DNA of 64,000 bases, taken from Candidatus Omnitrophota bacterium (lineage in GTDB: Bacteria; Omnitrophota; Gorgyraeia; Gygaellales; UBA12090). The stretch's first letter is position 1. The number at the start of each line of letters is the position of its first letter. The DNA is taken from assembly GCA_030674475.1 (NCBI GenBank), contig JAUSCZ010000014.1, forward strand, positions 13,938 through 77,937, in the 5' to 3' direction. The position numbers were made by a program, and so were the translations under genes. Of the stretch, positions 2,504 through 17,572 are shown one piece after another. The notes under the pieces were generated by a model. It made no database searches and was not told where the DNA came from. It saw nothing but the letters and a program-made list of their open reading frames with translations.

Positions 2504-3583
2504 ATGCAGACTGAAGTGTTAAAGGTTGATCCGGTGAGTCCGGATTTCGCGGCAATAGAGAAAGCGGCCGGTTTTATCCGCCAGGGAAAGATTGTGGCGA
2601 TTCCCACGGATACCGTGTATGGATTGGCAGTGGATTTCGGTAATCCCCAGGCCATGAAAAGGCTTTATGAATTGAAGAAGCGTCCTTTGAATAAGCCATT
2701 TACTATCGCGGTCTCCAGTGAAGAATCTTTAGAACGCCTTACGCGGGATGCCGGACCTTTGGCCTATAAGTTGATGGAAAAATTTTGGCCCGGGCCTTTG
2801 ACTCTGGTGTTAAAATCTGCCGAAAATACCGTTGATGAGCCTGATCGAACCATCGGTTTACGTCTTCCCAATAACCGGGTGGCTTTAAGGATTATTGAGG
2901 AATCCGGATGCGCGGTGGCCCTGCCTTCAGCTAATTATTCCGGCCAGAAGCCTGCCCGCGATGCCCGGGAAGTTTTATCCGCCCTTAAGGATAGTATAGA
3001 TTTAATTATGGATGCCGGTAAAGTTGAATTAGGGATAGAGTCAACAGTGGTGGATTTGAGCACAGCTCATTTTAAGATATTGCGCGAGGGCGCGGTGAGT
3101 AAGGCTGAAATAGAAAGGCTGGCTAAACTAAAAAAAGTTCTTTTTGTCTGCACCGGAAATTCCTGCCGTTCAGTAATGGCCGAAGGCCTGCTGAAAAAAG
3201 CTCTTAAAGACAAAAACCGCGTAGATGTGGAGGTGATGTCTGCCGGCATCTCAGCTTTTGGCGGCCAGTCGGCAACGCGGGAAACCTTACATTTGCTCGC
3301 TAAAGCCGGCGTGGACATACAAAAGGTTCATTACTCCCAGAGAATAACCAAGACTATGCTTTATTCTTCGGATTTAATTTTGGTTATGGAAAATATCCAT
3401 GAGGAGTATATTCTGAATATGGCCCCGGCTGTTCGCAGCCGGCTGTATTTATTAAAAGAATTTGCTAAAATTCCAGAGATGGATTTGAATATTCTGGACC
3501 CTATCGGCCAAAGCCCGGCCTTTTATGAAATGACCTTTTCAGCCATCAAAGGAGCAGTGGAGAAGGTAGCAGATTTACTATAA
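2504..3583 (+). CDS. fusion of L-threonylcarbamoyladenylate synthase (Sua5/YrdC/YwlC) and low-molecular-weight protein phosphatase (YwlE-like)
   Basis: N-terminal half has the YrdC fold (IPTDTVYGLAVD, KPFTIAVS). C-terminal half has the LMW-PTP P-loop VLFVCTGNSCRS(V)MAEG (CX5R). Track start 2489 is TTG; ATG at 2504 is more likely. Confidence 0.85.
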   Translation: MQTEVLKVDPVSPDFAAIEKAAGFIRQGKIVAIPTDTVYGLAVDFGNPQAMKRLYELKKRPLNKPFTIAVSSEESLERLTRDAGPLAYKLMEKFWPGPLTLVLKSAENTVDEPDRTIGLRLPNNRVALRIIEESGCAVALPSANYSGQKPARDAREVLSALKDSIDLIMDAGKVELGIESTVVDLSTAHFKILREGAVSKAEIERLAKLKKVLFVCTGNSCRSVMAEGLLKKALKDKNRVDVEVMSAGISAFGGQSATRETLHLLAKAGVDIQKVHYSQRITKTMLYSSDLILVMENIHEEYILNMAPAVRSRLYLLKEFAKIPEMDLNILDPIGQSPAFYEMTFSAIKGAVEKVADLL

Positions 3584-3591
3584 GGAGTGAG

Positions 3592-4077
3592 ATGTCCGGA
3601 AATTATAAAAAGAAAACCCAAGCCGTTGTTATCGGAAGCGACCACGGCGGATTTAGATTAAAAGAGAAGATTAAAAAATTCTTAGGAGATAAGGGTTATC
3701 AGATTAAGGATGTGGGCTGCTTTAACCAAGAGCCTTGCGATTATCCGGTATACGCGTATAAGGCGGCGAAAGAGGTATCTTTAAGGAATTTTTCTAAAGG
3801 TATTTTAATCTGTAAAAGCGGAATCGGGAATTCCATGGTGGCAAATAAACTCCCCGGGGTGCGGGCGGCTTTATGTTATAATCTAAAGGCGGCTAAGCTT
3901 TCCCGTCAGCATAACGACGCCAATGTTTTGGTTTTGGGGGCCTTATTTGTTAACGAGGCCCTAGCCAAGAGAATGGCAAGCCTTTGGCTGAAAACCGAAT
4001 TTGAGGGCGGAAGGCACTTAAGAAGGGTGAAGCAAATAAAAAAGATTGAGGATGAGATAAATCAAGATTATGCTTAA
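3592..4077 (+). CDS. rpiB: ribose-5-phosphate isomerase B
   Basis: VVIGSDHGGFRLKEKI... and the C/H catalytic region (GIGNSMVANK) of the RpiB/LacAB family. The neighbours (sua5, ywlE, glyA) follow the B. subtilis gene order. Confidence 0.9.
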   Translation: MSGNYKKKTQAVVIGSDHGGFRLKEKIKKFLGDKGYQIKDVGCFNQEPCDYPVYAYKAAKEVSLRNFSKGILICKSGIGNSMVANKLPGVRAALCYNLKAAKLSRQHNDANVLVLGALFVNEALAKRMASLWLKTEFEGGRHLRRVKQIKKIEDEINQDYA

Positions 4078-7474: not shown

Positions 7475-7984
7475 ATGAAGTGCATTTACTGCGGGCACCT
7501 GGAAGATAAGGTTATAGATTCGCGCTCAAGTTCGGAAGGTAATTCTGTCCGGAGAAGGCGGGAGTGTCTTAAGTGCGAGAGGCGTTTTACTACCTATGAA
7601 TACATTGAGCGGATACCGCTTTTGGTGGTAAAGAAAGACGGCCGCCGCGAGGCCTTTGACCGTAATAAGATTTTAAGTGGTATTGTTAAGGCCTGTGAGA
7701 AACGTTCTATAAGTCTTAAGATGATGGAGGATATGGTGGCTTTCATTGAAAGAAGCGCAATGCGCAAATACGAAAAAGAGATGCCTGCCTCAGTTGTGGG
7801 AGAGCTGGTTATGGAGAAATTAGCTACCGTTGATGAGGTGGCTTATGTGCGCTTTGCCTCGGTATACCGGCAGTTTAAAGATGTAAACCAGTTTATGAGT
7901 GAGCTAAAGGATATATTGGGTAAGGATGTAAAAAGAGAAGGCAAGGCCGCCCCAATTAAGCCTAAAGCTAAATCCCGGAGATAA
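7475..7984 (+). CDS. nrdR: transcriptional repressor NrdR
   Basis: MKCIYCGHLEDKVIDSR...CLKCERRFTTYE zinc ribbon plus ATP-cone. Confidence 0.95.
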   Translation: MKCIYCGHLEDKVIDSRSSSEGNSVRRRRECLKCERRFTTYEYIERIPLLVVKKDGRREAFDRNKILSGIVKACEKRSISLKMMEDMVAFIERSAMRKYEKEMPASVVGELVMEKLATVDEVAYVRFASVYRQFKDVNQFMSELKDILGKDVKREGKAAPIKPKAKSRR

Positions 7985-7986
7985 TT

Positions 7987-8388
7987 ATGATTGAGATGGA
8001 GTTAAATAAAATCATTATTGATGAGAAGCGCCAGGACCAGGTGATTGTGTTAAAGGAAAAAAACGGGATTAAAACCCTTCCTATTGTTATCGGTTTACTT
8101 GAGGCCTCCAGTATCAAGATGAAGCTTTCCGGAATCCAGGCTCCCCGTCCTTTAACTCACGACCTCCTGTATTCCATAATTGAAAGTCTTAAGGTCAAGG
8201 TTGAGAAAATAGTTATTGATAAATTAGAGAATAATACCTTTTACGCCAAGATGTTTATCGCGGCCGAAAACCAGGAAACCAGGATAATTGACGCCCGCCC
8301 TTCAGATTCAATTGCCTTAGCCGTGCGCGCCAAAGCCCCTATTTTCGTTGAGGAGGAGGTTTTGGAGCAGTCCGCCAAATATAAGTAA
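7987..8388 (+). CDS. bifunctional nuclease (BFN) family protein, DUF151
   Basis: DARPSDSIALAVRAKAPIFV motif of the DUF151/BFN family. Confidence 0.75.
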   Translation: MIEMELNKIIIDEKRQDQVIVLKEKNGIKTLPIVIGLLEASSIKMKLSGIQAPRPLTHDLLYSIIESLKVKVEKIVIDKLENNTFYAKMFIAAENQETRIIDARPSDSIALAVRAKAPIFVEEEVLEQSAKYK

Positions 8389-8401
8389 ATCTTTCTTACC
8401 T

Positions 8402-9859
8402 ATGGATGCTATCCTCAAGGAAATTAAGGCGAATCCTTACCTGAAGCTCATTGCCCGCCAGCTTAATAAATATCCTCAAGAATTTTATCTGGTCGGCGGA
8501 TACCCGCGCGACCTATTTCTAAAAAGAAAAAAAGAAGTATTTGATTTTGACTTCGCGCTGTCCGCCAGCGCGATAAAAACCGGCCGGGAAATCGCCAAGA
8601 GTCTTAAAAGCGGGTTTGTGGTTTTGGATGAAGAGCACGGTTCTTGCCGGATAGTGTATAACAAAGGCGGACAATCCTGCAATTTTGATTTTACCGATTT
8701 TCGCGGGCAAGGCATCTTAGAGGATTTACTGCATCGGGATTTTACTGTTAATAGCTTAGGCCTGGATTTAAAGGCATTAGGAAAAGCTAAAAAGAGTGAA
8801 GATATTCTTATTGACCGATACGGAGCGCTAAGGGACATAAAAAATAGGACTATCCGGGTAATCTCGGAATTAAGCTTTACGGAAGACCCTTTAAGGATTT
8901 TGCGCGCCTATTCCTTAAGCGCGGTCCTGGATTTCAGGATTGAGCCGAAAACTAAAATCCTGATCAAGAAGCACAAAGATAAAATTACCTCCTCCGCTTC
9001 TGAGCGCGTAAGCGAAGAATTGTTTAAGATTTTAAATTCTAAAAAAGCATTTGCTACCTTTAAGGCGATGGCTGATACTGGAGTTTTGAATGAGATTATT
9101 CCGGAGGTCAAGGCTATGCGCAAGGTCAGCCAGGGGCCGTATCATCACTTAGATGTTTACCGGCATTGTTTTGAGGCGCTCAAGCAAATAGAGAGGCTTT
9201 TTGAGGAATTAAAAAGATATAAAGATATTCAGCTTTTTCTTAACCGGATTATATCTGGAACTCACACCAAAAGAGCCCTGCTCAAGTTTAGCGCGTTCCT
9301 GCATGATATCGGAAAGCCGGTTTCCAAAGAACATATTAAAGATAAGGTTTGTTTTCATGGCCATGAAAGGACCGGGCGTAATATCGTCAGGGGCATTGCC
9401 GAGCGCTTAAGGCTTTCTAACGATGAAAGAAACGCTTTGGATAAAATCATCTTCTGGCATCTTCGCCCCGGGTATTTGGCTGACCTTAAAGATTTAAGCC
9501 GCCGGGCGGTGTATAGATATTTCCGGGATACCCAGAATGAAGCGGTAAGCGTGGTTTTGCTTTCAATCGCTGACCAGCGCTCAACCCGGGGGCCTTTAAC
9601 CCGAGGGGCAAACCGTAAACATCATGAAGATGTCTGCCTGGGGCTGGCGAAAGATTTTTTCAGGAAGTCCAAAAAAAAGAAATTTATCAAACTGATTAAC
9701 GGGAATGATTTAATGGCGGAATTTAAGCTTGAGTCCGGCCCTTTAATCGGAAAACTCCTGATTGCGATTGAGGAGTCCCAGGCTGTCGGAGACATCCGCG
9801 ACAAAGCCCAGGCTTTTGTTCTGGCCAAAAAGCTCATCAAGAAAGAAAGGCAGAAATGA
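8402..9859 (+). CDS. cca: CCA tRNA nucleotidyltransferase with HD domain
   Basis: PolyA-polymerase head (GGYPRDLFL, DFDF), RNA-binding region and C-terminal HD (HDIGKP...H). ATG at 8402 (MDAILKEIK) is preferred. Confidence 0.85.
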   Translation: MDAILKEIKANPYLKLIARQLNKYPQEFYLVGGYPRDLFLKRKKEVFDFDFALSASAIKTGREIAKSLKSGFVVLDEEHGSCRIVYNKGGQSCNFDFTDFRGQGILEDLLHRDFTVNSLGLDLKALGKAKKSEDILIDRYGALRDIKNRTIRVISELSFTEDPLRILRAYSLSAVLDFRIEPKTKILIKKHKDKITSSASERVSEELFKILNSKKAFATFKAMADTGVLNEIIPEVKAMRKVSQGPYHHLDVYRHCFEALKQIERLFEELKRYKDIQLFLNRIISGTHTKRALLKFSAFLHDIGKPVSKEHIKDKVCFHGHERTGRNIVRGIAERLRLSNDERNALDKIIFWHLRPGYLADLKDLSRRAVYRYFRDTQNEAVSVVLLSIADQRSTRGPLTRGANRKHHEDVCLGLAKDFFRKSKKKKFIKLINGNDLMAEFKLESGPLIGKLLIAIEESQAVGDIRDKAQAFVLAKKLIKKERQK

Positions 9860-13287: not shown

Positions 13288-13855
13288 ATGCGTCAATAAA
13301 GACAAGTCCGCCTGGAGTGAGTTTGTCCCGCGGTTTCGTCCCGTAGTTGAGAAGTCTGTCCGCTCCAGGCTCGCCCGCCATAATTTTCCCCACACTACAG
13401 AAGACCTAAAAGATATTACCCAAGGGATATTTCTGGATATCTGGGAAAAGAATAAATTAGCGTTAGTTAAAGATGAAGATAAAATTACCGGCTGGCTGGT
13501 GGTAGTCGCGCAAAATGCCGCGATTGACTATATCCGCTCACAGGCAAAATTTAACCGCCAGCGCTCGGTGTGCGCTAATGAAGATGGCGGAGTAAATGAT
13601 ATCTTGAATATTCTGCCTTCAGAAACCAATCTTTCCCAGGAATTAGCCAAAGGGGACTTAGCTGAAGCAGTAGATGAGTTGATTAACGCCCTGGAGCCGA
13701 GAGAGAAACTGATTCTAAGGCTGAATATCCAGCACAACCAGACTCATAAGGAAATCGCGATTTTTTTGAATATCCCTATTAACACCGTTTCCAGCATTCT
13801 GCGCCGGACAATGATTAGTTTTAGGGAGGATTTGAATAAAAAGGGATATATTTAA
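13259..13855 (+). CDS. ECF-type RNA polymerase sigma factor
   Basis: Sigma-70 region 2 (IFLDIWEK...AIDYIRSQ) and region 4 (LILRLNIQHNQTHKEIAIFLNIPINTVSSILRR). GTG start overlaps the aroC 3' end. Confidence 0.75.
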   Translation: MLTLKELVNRCVNKDKSAWSEFVPRFRPVVEKSVRSRLARHNFPHTTEDLKDITQGIFLDIWEKNKLALVKDEDKITGWLVVVAQNAAIDYIRSQAKFNRQRSVCANEDGGVNDILNILPSETNLSQELAKGDLAEAVDELINALEPREKLILRLNIQHNQTHKEIAIFLNIPINTVSSILRRTMISFREDLNKKGYI

Positions 13856-13904
13856 AATATTTTTGCACGAAAACAGCCGATTCTTACGTCTTAATAAGTA
13901 GGGA
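13854..13904 (+). promoter_or_regulatory. promoter-like cassette, copy 1 (duplicated upstream of two genes)
   Basis: AAAATATTTTTGCACGAAAACAGCCGATTCTTACGTCTTAATAAGTAGGGA is ~90% identical to 14347-14397. Both copies keep the same TGCAC-N18-CGTCT spacing and the same distance to the ATG. Confidence 0.5.
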
Positions 13905-13910
13905 GGGAAT

Positions 13911-14369
13911 ATGCCGGATTTAACCAGGATAATCAAAAATGGCTTTAGCCGCACCTCATGCGGCCTTAAAAAGACTCCGCAGTGCCCGTCAGAGCTGGAG
14001 CTGGGTAAATATTTGGATAAGTCCGCCTCTGTCAGCCAGAAAGACAGGATTGAAAGACATCTGGCGAACTGCGGCTATTGCTTAGATTTATTGGTTACGG
14101 CTAAAAAGGCGCTGAAAGATTCCCCAAAAAAGCCGAATGTTCTCCAGGCCCTAAATCAGCAGAAGTGGTTTATCTTAAGTATGCTGAGCTTAGGAATGTC
14201 CTTCTTTATCAAAAGGTATTTCTTCCAATTCCTTACCCTGAGCCTCATCTTTGGCCTTAAATGGGCCCTGAGCGCCGAAGGCAGCCGGAACCTGGTAATG
14301 ATTTTCCGTAGTCTGGGCCAAAAAGATACGGCGGATAGCAAAAAAGAAAATATTTTTGCACGAAAATAG
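13911..14369 (+). CDS. zf-HC2 putative anti-sigma factor with TM segment
   Basis: HLANCGYCLDLL zinc-finger anti-sigma motif, then a hydrophobic segment. Immediately downstream of the ECF sigma. Confidence 0.6.
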   Translation: MPDLTRIIKNGFSRTSCGLKKTPQCPSELELGKYLDKSASVSQKDRIERHLANCGYCLDLLVTAKKALKDSPKKPNVLQALNQQKWFILSMLSLGMSFFIKRYFFQFLTLSLIFGLKWALSAEGSRNLVMIFRSLGQKDTADSKKENIFARK

Positions 14370-14397
14370 CCATTTCTTACGTCTATATAAGTAAGGA
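14347..14397 (+). promoter_or_regulatory. promoter-like cassette, copy 2
   Basis: AAAATATTTTTGCACGAAAATAGCCATTTCTTACGTCTATATAAGTAAGGA. Overlaps the 3' end of the anti-sigma ORF and precedes a 28-codon ORF and spoVG. Confidence 0.5.
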
Positions 14398-14503
14398 CAG
14401 AAATTATGGCAGGAAAGGCTGTAATTGGGATGTCCGAAACTTATCCCGCCGCTTTGCTTCGGAAAACGAAGCTGGGGGGTGCATTTGAGTAGGAGGTGGC
14501 AAG

Positions 14504-14767
14504 ATGGTAGAGGCAAGCGATATTCAGGTGGCTCGGCTCTTTAGGGTCGAGAAGGAAGGCAGTAAGCTTAAGGCCTTTGTAGATTTAGCCATAGGCGGCT
14601 GTCTCATTGTCAAAGGGTTTAAGATAATGCAAGGCCAGGAAGGCTTGTTTGTAAGTATGCCCAGCCAGCCAGGCAAAGACGGTAAATGGTATCAAGTGGC
14701 CTTGCCTGCCACTAAAGAAAAAGGACAGGAGATCAGCGAAATAATCCTCTCGGCCTACAGAGAATAA
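14504..14767 (+). CDS. spoVG: SpoVG family protein
   Basis: VARLFRVEKEGSKLKAFVDLAIGGCLIVKGFKIMQGQEGLFVSMPS matches the SpoVG core. Confidence 0.85.
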   Translation: MVEASDIQVARLFRVEKEGSKLKAFVDLAIGGCLIVKGFKIMQGQEGLFVSMPSQPGKDGKWYQVALPATKEKGQEISEIILSAYRE

Positions 14768-14804
14768 ACAACAGTTTGCTTTATTTTAGCGTTAAGGTAA
14801 AATA

Positions 14805-14850
14805 ACCATAAAATAGGGATAGCTTGTTATAGCTACCCCTATTTTATGGT
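14805..14850 (+). terminator. long hairpin after spoVG (ACCATAAAATAGGGATAGCT/AGCTACCCCTATTTTATGGT)
   Basis: 19-20-bp near-perfect stem with a 6-nt loop. T-rich 5' side. Marks the left edge of the AT-rich islet. Confidence 0.5.
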
Positions 14851-14946
14851 GAAGAAAAATGGTAACATTAGTCAGATGGTAATTCTTGTTGTTTAGAGTT
14901 TCCTGTAATATAATTTAAGGTATTATGCGATGTAAATCGCTTCACG

Positions 14947-15171
14947 GTGAGGCAATGGTTAAGCGGTAAGATTGTTAAAATAGCAATAAGATTGTGTTAT
15001 TGCAGGGGGGATTCAATGCTTATGGACAATCAAACTAAACAGAATATCCGTATTGTTTTAGAGTATCTTTGGCGCGATGAAGAACGGCACTATCTTGAAA
15101 GCCGGGAGTGCAAGAAGCATATTTTTCATATTTTAAAGCATTTAGCAAAAGTTGTTAAATATGAACCTTGA
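14947..15171 (+). CDS. small hypothetical protein upstream of the DpnI-like gene (true start possibly 15017)
   Basis: ORF only. RBS GGGGGGATTCA precedes the internal ATG. Overlaps the start of the REase gene. Confidence 0.3.
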   Translation: MRQWLSGKIVKIAIRLCYCRGDSMLMDNQTKQNIRIVLEYLWRDEERHYLESRECKKHIFHILKHLAKVVKYEP

Positions 15172-15931
15172 TTTGGATAAGCGAGCAGTTGAGTCCTATA
15201 AAAGCTCTTCACAAAGGGCGAGAGTTTTAACTGAGGCGTGGGTTAATAAAGAGGCTTATTGCCCTAATTGTGGTAATGCGCGTCTTACTAAATATTCTAA
15301 TAATAAGCCTGTTGCCGACTTCTTTTGTAGAAGTTGCAATGAGGATTTCGAACTTAAAAGCAAAAAGGATTCATTCGGAGCTAAAATTGTCGATGGGGAT
15401 TATCAAGCAATGCTTAAGAGATTAGCTGATGTTCATAATCCAAACTTCTTTTTGTTAAATTACGATTTATGTTCATATCAGGTTTTAAATTTCTTTGTGA
15501 TCCCAAAGCACTTTTTTGTTCCTGAAATCATCGAGGAGAGGAAACCCCTCTCAATTGACGCGGAGAGAGCGGAATGGATAGGGTGCAATATTTTATTAAG
15601 CAGAATGCCTGAAGCAGGCAGGATTTTCTTGGTTAAGGATGGACAGGTCAAACCAAAAGAAGATGTTTGCGCGGTTTGGCAAAAAACTCTATTTTTACGG
15701 GAAAAAAAGAAGGCTGAATCGAGAGGCTGGATTTTGGATGTTATGCGCTGCATTGAAGCGGTTCGCAAGAAGGAGTTTACCCTTGCGGACATTTATAAGT
15801 TTGAGTCTATACTGTTTGAACAACACCCTGACAACAGGCATATAAAAGATAAAATTAGACAGCAGCTTCAAATATTGCGAGACAAAGGCTATTTGGTATT
15901 TTTGGGAAAAGGCAGATATGGATTAGCGTGA
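15152..15931 (+). CDS. DpnI-family (Dam-replacing family) methyl-directed Type IIM restriction endonuclease
   Basis: Aligns along its whole length with R.DpnI as I recall it: YCPNCGN, PVADFFC, FELKSKK, NPNFF, WIGCNI, GRIFLV, KIRQQLQILRDK. PD-(D/E)XK N-domain plus a winged-helix C-domain. Confidence 0.75.
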   Translation: MLNMNLDLDKRAVESYKSSSQRARVLTEAWVNKEAYCPNCGNARLTKYSNNKPVADFFCRSCNEDFELKSKKDSFGAKIVDGDYQAMLKRLADVHNPNFFLLNYDLCSYQVLNFFVIPKHFFVPEIIEERKPLSIDAERAEWIGCNILLSRMPEAGRIFLVKDGQVKPKEDVCAVWQKTLFLREKKKAESRGWILDVMRCIEAVRKKEFTLADIYKFESILFEQHPDNRHIKDKIRQQLQILRDKGYLVFLGKGRYGLA

Positions 15932-16267
15932 TTAAAATTCAGCATAATTGTTCAACGACGAGATACTGGGGCGCGCGTGAGAAAGATTTTTTACTGATTA
16001 TGCATGAACATCTTTTTATATTTAGAAAGATAGGAATTGGGGAGGATAAAGCTATTTTTAGAGATAGCATTATAAGTAATGAATAAAGGCTTAAAGAAGA
16101 AAATTCTTGAAATCGCATTTTGACATTTCAAGTTTTGGTATCGTATTCTGCGATACCAAATTAGAGAGGAAAGGTTTGTGAAACAAAAATAGAAAGCGTC
16201 AATAACATATTTAATTCCACGAGAAGTTATAGAAAACAAAATATTTCTAATCAGGGGTAAAAAAGTA

Positions 16268-16534
16268 ATGCTGGATAGAAATCTGGCAATGCTGTATGAA
16301 GTGCCGCCCAAAAGATTAAATGAACAGGTAAAAAGAAATATTAAAAGATTCCCCAAGGATTTTATGTTCCAATTAACAAAAGAGGAAACAGATTCTTTAA
16401 GGTCGCAAATTGCGACCTTAAAAAGAGGGCAATATTCGAAGTACTCTTTCACTGAGCATGGAATTTTGATGCTCTCAAGCGTCCTTAATAGTGAAAAATT
16501 ATGGCAGAAAAAAGAGCCAGTATTAAAGGCTTAA
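16268..16534 (+). pseudogene. ORF6N-domain (KilA-N-like, phage antirepressor type) fragment
   Basis: LAMLYEVPPKRLNEQVKRNIKRFPKDFMFQLT...FTEHGILMLSSVLNSEKL matches the ORF6N domain. The protein ends after 88 aa, running out-of-frame into the next gene with no ORF6C part. Confidence 0.6.
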
Positions 16535-16950
16535 AGAAGAAAATTCTTAAGGTTATCAAAGGAAGCAAATTGGCCAGCCTGGCTACTGTTGTTAATGGTA
16601 AGCCGTGGGTAAGATATGTGGTTGCTCGTAGTGAAGGGTTAACCCTCTATATCTGCACCTTTAAGGATTCGCGAAAGGTTAAGCAGATTAAGAAAAATCC
16701 CAAGGTGCATATTACTATTGGCGGGAGTATGGAGAATATGGAGGCTCCCTATGTCCAGATTGCGGCTTGTGCCAAGGCGCGCTCTGACGCGGGGATTAGA
16801 AAGAGATTCTGGATGCCGTTTATGAGAAAATACTATACCGGCGTAGATGACCCTCAGTATGTGGTTATTGAGGTTCGGCCAGTGCTAATAGAATATATGA
16901 GCACAGAAACCCATACGCCGCAGATATATAAGGTTGGTAGAAGGAAGTAG
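16501..16950 (+). CDS. pyridoxamine 5'-phosphate oxidase-like FMN-binding protein (general stress protein 26 family)
   Basis: ASLATVVNGKPWVRYV...YICTFKDSRKVKQIKKNPKVHITIG is the typical PNPOx-like split-barrel sequence. Confidence 0.7.
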   Translation: MAEKRASIKGLKKKILKVIKGSKLASLATVVNGKPWVRYVVARSEGLTLYICTFKDSRKVKQIKKNPKVHITIGGSMENMEAPYVQIAACAKARSDAGIRKRFWMPFMRKYYTGVDDPQYVVIEVRPVLIEYMSTETHTPQIYKVGRRK

Positions 16951-17068
16951 CGTTGGTATAAGTAGTGATTTAACCTATTGATTATAAGAGAGTTGCAAAA
17001 ACTCGCCTCACCAAGGGGCGGGTTTTTGTTTTGACAGACCTTCCTATATATGTTAAACTTATGAGGTT

Positions 17069-17572
17069 ATGCGAAATATATACTTAACCGGCTTTATGGG
17101 GACGGGTAAGACTTCAGCCGCCCGGGAAATAGCCGGGATGTTGGGCTTAAAGTTTATAGATTTAGACGAGCTGATTGTTAAAAAAGAAGGCCGTAGCATA
17201 AATGATGTTTTTGCCCAAGACGGCGAGCCGTATTTTCGTAAAGCTGAGAAGGAGGCTTTAAGGGAAGTTTCTCAAGCTAACAGCCAGGTTGTCTCCTGCG
17301 GCGGGGGAATAGTAATTGATCCGGAAAATATTGCCATTATGAAGCAGAGTGGAAGGTTTATCGCTCTTACCGCCTGTCCGGAAGTTATTTTTGAGCGCAT
17401 CAAGAAAGAAACTCAGCGGCCGCTTCTAAATACCGCGGATCCCTTAGCTAAGATAAATGAACTGCTTACTATCCGCAAGCCCTATTATGATCAGGCCGAG
17501 TTTGTAATAGATACCTCGGATATATCTGTCCAAGAGGCGGCAGAGAAGGTAATTAAGCTGATAAATGACTGA
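17069..17572 (+). CDS. aroK: shikimate kinase
   Basis: IYLTGFMGTGKTSAAREIA P-loop and ~165 aa length. Confidence 0.9.
   Translation: MRNIYLTGFMGTGKTSAAREIAGMLGLKFIDLDELIVKKEGRSINDVFAQDGEPYFRKAEKEALREVSQANSQVVSCGGGIVIDPENIAIMKQSGRFIALTACPEVIFERIKKETQRPLLNTADPLAKINELLTIRKPYYDQAEFVIDTSDISVQEAAEKVIKLIND

Follow-up and report, generated by a model that had tools for sequence, protein, structure and literature searches.

The contig JAUSCZ010000014.1 of a Candidatus Omnitrophota bacterium raises the question of how a gene for a DpnI-family restriction endonuclease came to lie between spoVG and a gene for a PNPOx-like protein. We analyzed 64,000 nucleotides of this contig (positions 13,938 to 77,937 of the forward strand), hereafter called the window, and count positions from its first letter. 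According to the open reading frame (ORF) list and Pfam, the gene order around the slot is aroC, extracytoplasmic function (ECF) sigma factor, anti-sigma factor, and spoVG, followed by the PNPOx-like gene, aroK, dprA, and topA. Each feature listed in the earlier note on this DNA was recovered at its coordinates or within a few bases of them. The note had described the region as an AT-rich islet, and indeed 14863–16487 has a GC content of 36.1% against 44.9% for the whole window. It is the most GC-poor 1.6-kb stretch there (0.3% of sliding windows are as low), and it forms a variable islet. We conclude, with a probability of about 0.8, that a clade of Omnitrophota has a polymorphic restriction locus between spoVG and the PNPOx-like gene (ahead of aroK–dprA–topA), that 14863–16487 is its DpnI allele, and that this allele replaced a DpnII-type operon. 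Positions 13413–16422 are 100% identical in a public contig (L001); among genomes, an "Omnitrophica bacterium" bin (L002) is the nearest, and the same gene order is found in more distant Omnitrophota.

The protein encoded by 15161–15931 matches the mREase_II model of PADLOC (4e-109) and, over the whole chain, the structure of R.DpnI (PDB code 4esj, 1.5e-86). Its N-terminal DpnI domain covers profile positions 1–182 of 183 of PF06044 (2e-76), and its C-terminal winged helix, which aligns to the end of 4esj, covers positions 1–68 of 70 of PF17726 (DpnI_C, 1.6e-31). These Pfam matches bear out the previous assignment to the DpnI family of methyl-directed endonucleases. Residues E25, D53, E64, and K66 of R.DpnI and both CXXC motifs are in register (LTEAW, PVADF, FELKSKK, CPNC, and CRSC); mutagenesis and structural work on R.DpnI mark these four residues and the four zinc-holding cysteines as important (PMC3424567). 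The protein thus resembles R.DpnI as seen in the structures 4esj and 4kyw (Siwek et al. 2012, PMC3424567) in its full-length alignment, its catalytic and zinc residues, and its winged helix, whereas it has diverged in sequence, belongs to a different phylum, and is known here from sequence alone. The ORF had been delineated as 15152–15931, and it stands except for its start. A TTG at 15152 is possible, yet ATG 15161 is better supported: it aligns with residue 1 of DpnI and agrees with the public gene call, and in an exact-protein look-up the ATG-15161 version retrieved the 100% identical public contig, whereas the TTG-15152 version gave no match. The ratio of nonsynonymous to synonymous substitution rates (dN/dS) is 0.07–0.17 relative to homologues with estimable dS (dS is saturated in most of the distant comparisons), which indicates purifying selection. 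In summary, 15161–15931 encodes an intact, full-length Type IIM endonuclease of the DpnI family. Judging from its homology to R.DpnI, it is expected to cleave GATC only when methylated, and both the PD-(D/E)XK/zinc domain and the winged helix would read GATC carrying N6-methyladenine, G(m6A)TC.

What else can occupy this position becomes apparent from the relatives. Alignments with them break just past a hairpin downstream of spoVG (∼14862) and resume at 15928, and the contents in between differ. Three contigs (L085, L086, and L087) carry the same 51-residue ORF and DpnI gene as the window, with 95–97% amino acid identity for DpnI; the DpnI found at this locus in L089 is 75% identical and has other neighbors. 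In L098, a complete DpnII-type operon fills the slot, flanked by the same two genes, spoVG and PNPOx. This operon comprises a first methylase (M1) of the D12/Dam class (PF02086, 7e-60), a DpnII endonuclease (PF04556, 4.5e-97), and a second methylase (M2; PF01555, 4.7e-28; PADLOC PDLC03376, 2.7e-56). In L002 and L101, the slot contains a nuclease unrelated to DpnI. The L002 protein shows weak HARE-HTH (Pfam) and REase_II (PADLOC) matches, and Pfam and PDB searches with it gave nothing beyond the weak HARE-HTH match; the label NmeDI_C for this third allele is a precomputed annotation of the L101 homologue. In L003, spoVG adjoins aroK directly, which represents an empty site, and in L005 an ORF6N gene stands alone in the slot. 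The DpnI alleles (window, L085–L087, and L089) and the M1–DpnII–M2 allele (L098) are all located downstream of spoVG. On the right, the PNPOx-like gene is reached in the window, L086, L087, and L098, whereas the contigs of L085 and L089 end earlier; PNPOx-like orthologues were found in L002, L086, L087, L098, and L101 and are absent in L003 and L005. A recent, genome-specific acquisition does not agree with the same cassette in L085–L087 and a 75%-identical DpnI at the locus in L089. The comparison of the spoVG–PNPOx junction confirms that the islet is variable, but alternative alleles rather than an inserted mobile unit occupy it.

Directly behind the DpnI gene lies a scar, missed by the earlier note, that was left by a DpnII-type operon of the kind that stands intact in the slot of L098. 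The 52-residue ORF alone retrieved nothing in Pfam, NCBIfam, or PDB and was identified by PADLOC and by genomic context. It matches positions 214–249 of 249 of the MTase_II model PDLC03376 (E 4.6e-7) and shows 77% amino acid identity to residues 177–228 of the L098 M2 (87.5% nucleotide identity to L098 3244–3347). Full-length relatives of M2 measure about 215–222 amino acids; those of about 217 form the third gene of M1–DpnII–M2 operons, with an intact example in L100. Since 15928–16086 is the 3′ end of M2, it follows that DpnI replaced a GATC restriction–modification operon. A conserved small-protein family, to which the length of the homologues (66–88 amino acids in 8 of 8) had pointed, was dropped as the primary reading because a longer query retrieved 535 relatives, some of them full-length methylases; alternatively, the M2 fragment itself could be a selected small protein. 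The sequence P0004 is part of an M2 gene, split solely by an assembly gap of Ns.

Similar remnants accompany DpnI elsewhere. In L089, DpnI lies between a truncated ORF165 (the first gene of L098) and an M2 fragment, both 85–92% identical to L098 at the nucleotide level. DpnI beside M2 remnants recurs at three other loci. At the unrelated locus of L096, fragments of a Dam-like M1 (residues 1–30 and 258–284, including a degenerate PFLKWAGGK motif) directly precede DpnI and an M2 fragment follows it, and in L097 and L103/L104 a truncated M2 comes after DpnI. M2 scars occur also in L002 and L101, where DpnI is missing. The scars begin at differing points (M2 residues about 82, 115, 140, 156, and 177). 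Between L096 and L097, the scar is more conserved than DpnI (82% versus 56% amino acid identity), with a dN of 0.01–0.03 and saturated dS. A zinc-ribbon ORF of ∼65–70 amino acids (MK..KKCGGD..FCKNCD.DYSE) directly precedes the M2 scar in L096 (5703–5915) and L101 (∼3745–3950); its presence in both the DpnI-bearing L096 and L101 with its other nuclease suggests an old shared junction.

The flanks hint at a possible route of replacement. Relative to L086, nucleotide identity amounts to 89–92% in the backbone, 86% in spoVG, and 95% in DpnI, and the spoVG allele of the window is 91–92% identical to L082/L083. This mosaic fits an exchange of alleles via homologous recombination and not a site-specific insertion. 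Together with the common breakpoints, it is consistent with the most likely route, in which cassettes would be exchanged by homologous recombination in the shared flanks.

Complementary DpnI and DpnII cassettes were reportedly described in Streptococcus pneumoniae by Lacks et al. in 1986. Pneumococcal strains carry at one locus either a DpnI-family endonuclease or DpnII with two methylases, and phage DNA marked in one cell type is restricted by the other (Johnston et al. 2013, PMC3573125, PMC3812788). The Omnitrophota locus resembles this arrangement in that either DpnI or DpnII plus two methylases (D12/Dam class and PF01555 class) lie between the same conserved flanks. However, the operon order here is M1–R–M2, whereas the pneumococcal order is dpnM–dpnA–dpnB. 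Moreover, the DpnI allele keeps the 3′ end of M2 and thus shares some homology with the DpnII allele. A dpnD gene is missing here; upstream of DpnI lies the 51-residue orphan ORF instead, and a third allele (the NmeDI_C-type nuclease of L101) and an empty site exist in addition. The host, too, differs, as it is an uncultivated member of the Omnitrophota known here only through its sequence.

A simpler parallel is the neisserial dam-replacing gene drg (NmeBII/Drg), reported at the leuS/dam locus (PMC516771, PMC4269198). Like the gene here, drg belongs to the DpnI family, is lower in GC than its genome, and stands in place of a GATC adenine methylase gene, so that Dam activity and a methyl-GATC nuclease exclude each other. 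The product of 15161–15931 shares 44% amino acid identity with the neisserial protein. Whereas drg replaces a solitary dam, a whole two-methylase DpnII operon was replaced here with recognizable scars left behind, and the locus and its flanking genes are different. The kind of locus is therefore already known; new are the M1–R–M2 order, the methylase scars beside DpnI, the extra alleles, and the phylum. The locus indicates that the polymorphism between cutting methylated and unmethylated GATC, known from pneumococcus and in simpler form from Neisseria, is present also in the groundwater phylum Omnitrophota. It further records the direction of change, with DpnI sitting on the remains of a DpnII-type operon.

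On this basis, the following history can be proposed. DpnI took the place of a DpnII-type operon made up of Dam-like M1, the DpnII endonuclease, and M2, and the last ∼52 codons of M2 stayed behind as a scar. The enzyme would cut fully adenine-methylated GATC, as R.DpnI does (PMC3424567). GATC in the host would be unmethylated, hence its own sites would be safe. DNA of phages or of other origin coming from Dam+ or DpnII+ cells, including siblings with the L098 allele, would be destroyed, and the reverse would also hold. The population would then maintain complementary states of GATC methylation, as in S. pneumoniae (PMC3812788, PMC3573125). A prediction is that m6A in GATC should be absent from bins with the DpnI allele and present in bins with the DpnII allele.

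The composition of the window agrees with parts of this history. When M1, DpnII, and M2 of L098 were used as probes of the 64 kb, the M2 scar was the only hit and no dam or DpnII homologue appeared, in line with the earlier expectation that no GATC methylase lies nearby; the host may lack GATC methylation. The tetramer GATC occurs 85 times, whereas dinucleotide shuffles predict 210 occurrences and a Markov model 269. Its depletion is strong (observed/expected 0.32–0.40), and only two tetramers, CTAG and GTAC, are avoided more. The ratio is 0.24–0.54 in close relatives and 0.57–0.71 in more distant Omnitrophota. Other low ratios are 0.13 for CTAG, 0.17 for GTAC, 0.54 for TCGA, and 0.60 for CATG, and the five tetramers together suggest heavy exposure to several 4-base restriction specificities. 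The depletion of GATC is compatible with, though no proof of, restriction aimed at GATC over a long time in this clade.

Several points weigh against a replacement of a DpnII-type operon by DpnI within one polymorphic population. CTAG and GTAC are depleted as well, and thus the scarcity of GATC need not stem from restriction at GATC. The view is limited to 64 kb of the genome, and a GATC methylase may be encoded elsewhere. The predicted specificity and methyl-dependence derive from 50–60% identity to R.DpnI. The relatives are metagenome contigs and bins, and their treatment as one population rests on 85–95% nucleotide identity of the flanks. Finally, a switch from the methylated DpnII+ state to DpnI should be self-killing, unless expression of the nuclease is delayed.

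An extension of the replacement history, which is doubtful but deserves mention, is that DpnI genes spread as "usurpers," with leftover ends of M1 and M2 serving as homology arms into any DpnII-type operon. It would account for two observations: at no fewer than four unrelated loci, DpnI has M2 (and M1) fragments beside it, and the M2 fragment is better conserved than DpnI itself, as would be expected if the scar were re-sampled repeatedly from live M2 genes. If true, such recombination would remove restriction and methylation in one step. Methyl-dependent nucleases may have a general way of displacing restriction–modification systems, as is hinted by the recurrent pairing of DpnI with methylase stumps at loci that are unrelated.

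It is improbable that the DpnI homologue is kept for a non-defense, housekeeping-like role. A precedent would be Drg of Neisseria gonorrhoeae, which reportedly affects viability and biofilm formation (PMC4269198), and both the purifying selection on the DpnI gene and its stable linkage to housekeeping genes could be accommodated. However, the locus swaps restriction modules (the DpnII operon, the NmeDI_C-type nuclease of L101, and DpnI), and adjacent slots in relatives harbor toxin–antitoxin, AbiEii, Bro-N, and ORF6N genes, a signature of defense hotspots.

The small mobile or phage-derived insertion proposed by the earlier note is largely refuted, and we regard it as quite unlikely. In that view, a recent islet brought DpnI together with an ORF6N remnant, its ends being the hairpin and a 25-nucleotide direct repeat. 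The low GC content (36% versus 45%) would fit, ORF6N/KilA-N-like domains are common in phages and among PADLOC defense candidates, and in L097 DpnI and the M2 scar lie near genes for a serine recombinase and a primase-polymerase, such that the module appears to be mobile elsewhere. However, neither an integrase, a transposase, or another recombinase ORF nor a tRNA near DpnI was found in the ORF list and tRNA scan of the window. Boundary repeats that match each other or resemble attachment sites are missing too, so that an integrative element or prophage remnant is not recognizable. DpnI homologues are virtually absent from phage and plasmid collections, with one partial match in 50,697 phage records and two matches in 72,556 plasmid records, both of the latter in 2.17-Mb, i.e. 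chromosome-sized, records of N. gonorrhoeae. DpnI is, moreover, common to lineages at this locus whose proteins are 75% identical. The proposed ends fare no better, as the hairpin is a structure of the conserved flank and the repeat, the sole one at the locus, brackets ORF6N only and occurs in L101/L102 without DpnI. In L097 (1461–2749 and 3800–8749), the DpnI gene and its M2 scar are located beside a YhcG-like nuclease gene, with the primase-polymerase and serine recombinase genes a few kb off, and this module may ride on a mobile element.

The ORF6N gene itself had correctly been recognized as truncated. The fragment 16268–16534 matches profile positions 12–86 of PF10543 (4.9e-27) and PADLOC PDC-S05 (2e-42), and in place of the intact ORF of about 173–190 amino acids found in relatives, the window contains a pseudogene. 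Its missing 3′ end corresponds to a 234-bp deletion relative to L101 at the microhomology AGTGAAA. It is not part of the DpnI segment, as had been thought, but an older resident of the locus, as judged from the relatives. Positions 15927–16496 are collinear with L101/L102 at 92% nucleotide identity (L101 4126–4704), where the order is M2 scar, left repeat copy, intact 177-residue ORF6N, and PNPOx; more divergent intact ORF6N genes lie at the locus in L088 and L005. The direct repeat, which duplicates the 5′ end of the PNPOx-like gene as previously described, is exact over 25 nucleotides rather than 24 (16084–16108 and 16524–16548). In L086/L087, the 440 bp between the two copies are missing and PNPOx starts from the ATG equivalent to window position 16078, which indicates that the repeat brackets the ORF6N segment and mediated its deletion in this sister lineage. 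The left copy is near-identical (about 89% over 28 nucleotides) in L101/L102. A target-site duplication or attachment site of a DpnI islet was considered for this repeat and rejected, because L101/L102 have two copies without DpnI, and L086/L087 have DpnI with one copy. It therefore does not mark a right-hand islet boundary. A perfect palindrome of 13 + 13 nucleotides, TTTAAGGTCGCAA T TTGCGACCTTAAA, is situated at 16396–16422 inside the ORF6N remnant. It is 100% conserved in L101/L102, compared with 92% identity of the surrounding DNA, and could be an operator or a minus-strand terminator.

The reverse history, in which DpnI is ancestral and L098 acquired the DpnII-type operon by a later insertion, could appeal to the greater number of sampled relatives with DpnI (window, L085–L087, and L089, compared with L098 only), but it is highly improbable because truncated M2 (and, in L096, M1) genes beside DpnI are derivable only from full-length genes and because L002 and L101 still bear M2 scars without DpnI, with scars starting at different points.

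On the left side, the hairpin had been taken as a feature of the islet. We read it instead as a terminator-like element of spoVG, marking where the conserved flank ends. It is kept in six relatives, and of its 20 pairs, 3 show compensatory double changes that maintain the pairing; L089 and L090 have a hairpin of another sequence in the equivalent position. Homology between strains stops ∼12 nucleotides past the hairpin, at about 14862. A repeated element or recombination site was also considered for it and dropped, as the hairpin is present in a single copy within the window and belongs to the conserved spoVG flank. An Rfam scan of 13800–17200 yielded sub-threshold chance matches only.

Table 1. 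Features at the spoVG–PNPOx slot (positions in the window)
Feature	Position	Strand	Remarks
spoVG	14504..14767	+	Conserved left flank; PF04026 3.3e-19; adjoins the variable slot in all relatives
Hairpin	14805..14850	+	Terminator-like; 20-nucleotide arms, 95% complementary; folding z-score -6.7
Candidate sigma-70-like promoter	14886..14914	+	TTGTTG-17-TATAAT; putative, read from the letters
51-residue orphan ORF	15016..15171	+	Stop overlaps the DpnI start; gene call in the public contig
DpnI-family Type IIM restriction endonuclease	15161..15931	+	PD-(D/E)XK domain with Cys4 zinc site; C-terminal winged helix
M2 scar	15928..16086	+	Last ∼52 codons of a PF01555-type second methylase, fused to the DpnI stop
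Orphaned alternative PNPOx 5′ end	16078..16108	+	ATG 16078, MNKGLKKKIL; holds left repeat copy 16084-16108
ORF6N pseudogene	16178..16496	+	GTG start 16178; TAG at codon 5 (16190-16192); 3′ end lost by 234-bp deletion
PNPOx-like gene	16501..16950	+	Right flank; PF01243 2.8e-18; holds right repeat copy 16524-16548

Upstream of DpnI, a small ORF overlapping the endonuclease start had been noted at 14947–15171. The ORF exists, but its conserved coding part is shorter (Table 1). Compared with L085–L087, 5 of its 6 substitutions are at third codon positions, and a dN of 0.008 at a dS of 0.20 identifies it as a real coding sequence. Its homologues are confined to this Omnitrophota clade, and no family was found in Pfam, PADLOC, or NCBIfam. 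It is probably co-translated with DpnI. A consensus promoter scan did not report the candidate promoter at 14886–14914; its TATAAT box is conserved in L085–L087.

The alternative allele of L002 shows an in-frame TAA after codon 12 of the apparent HARE-HTH N terminus of its nuclease (7689–8422), and its M2 scar has an internal stop; this allele may be decaying, or the stops may be assembly errors.

Further variation surrounds spoVG. A direct repeat of ∼50 nucleotides (∼88% identity), seen as blastn cross-matches in the comparisons with L001 and L002, has one copy on either side of the anti-sigma gene (13854–13904 and 14347–14397). Just 134 bp separate the anti-sigma gene from spoVG in the window. 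In relatives, this interval contains ParE toxins (L082 2645–2908(−) and L083 5225–5518), a Bro-N protein (L088 2704–3525), or a large secreted-looking protein (L090). Downstream of spoVG, L090 additionally carries genes for AbiEii and a DUF6922 protein; the regions concerned in L090 are 1442–2503 and 2945–3604. With accessory genes both up- and downstream, the two sides of spoVG are hotspots for such genes. In L083/L084 (6264–12261), a two-component system and phosphate-transport genes follow spoVG and the hairpin and replace aroK–dprA–topA, which indicates that a larger rearrangement begins at the same breakpoint.

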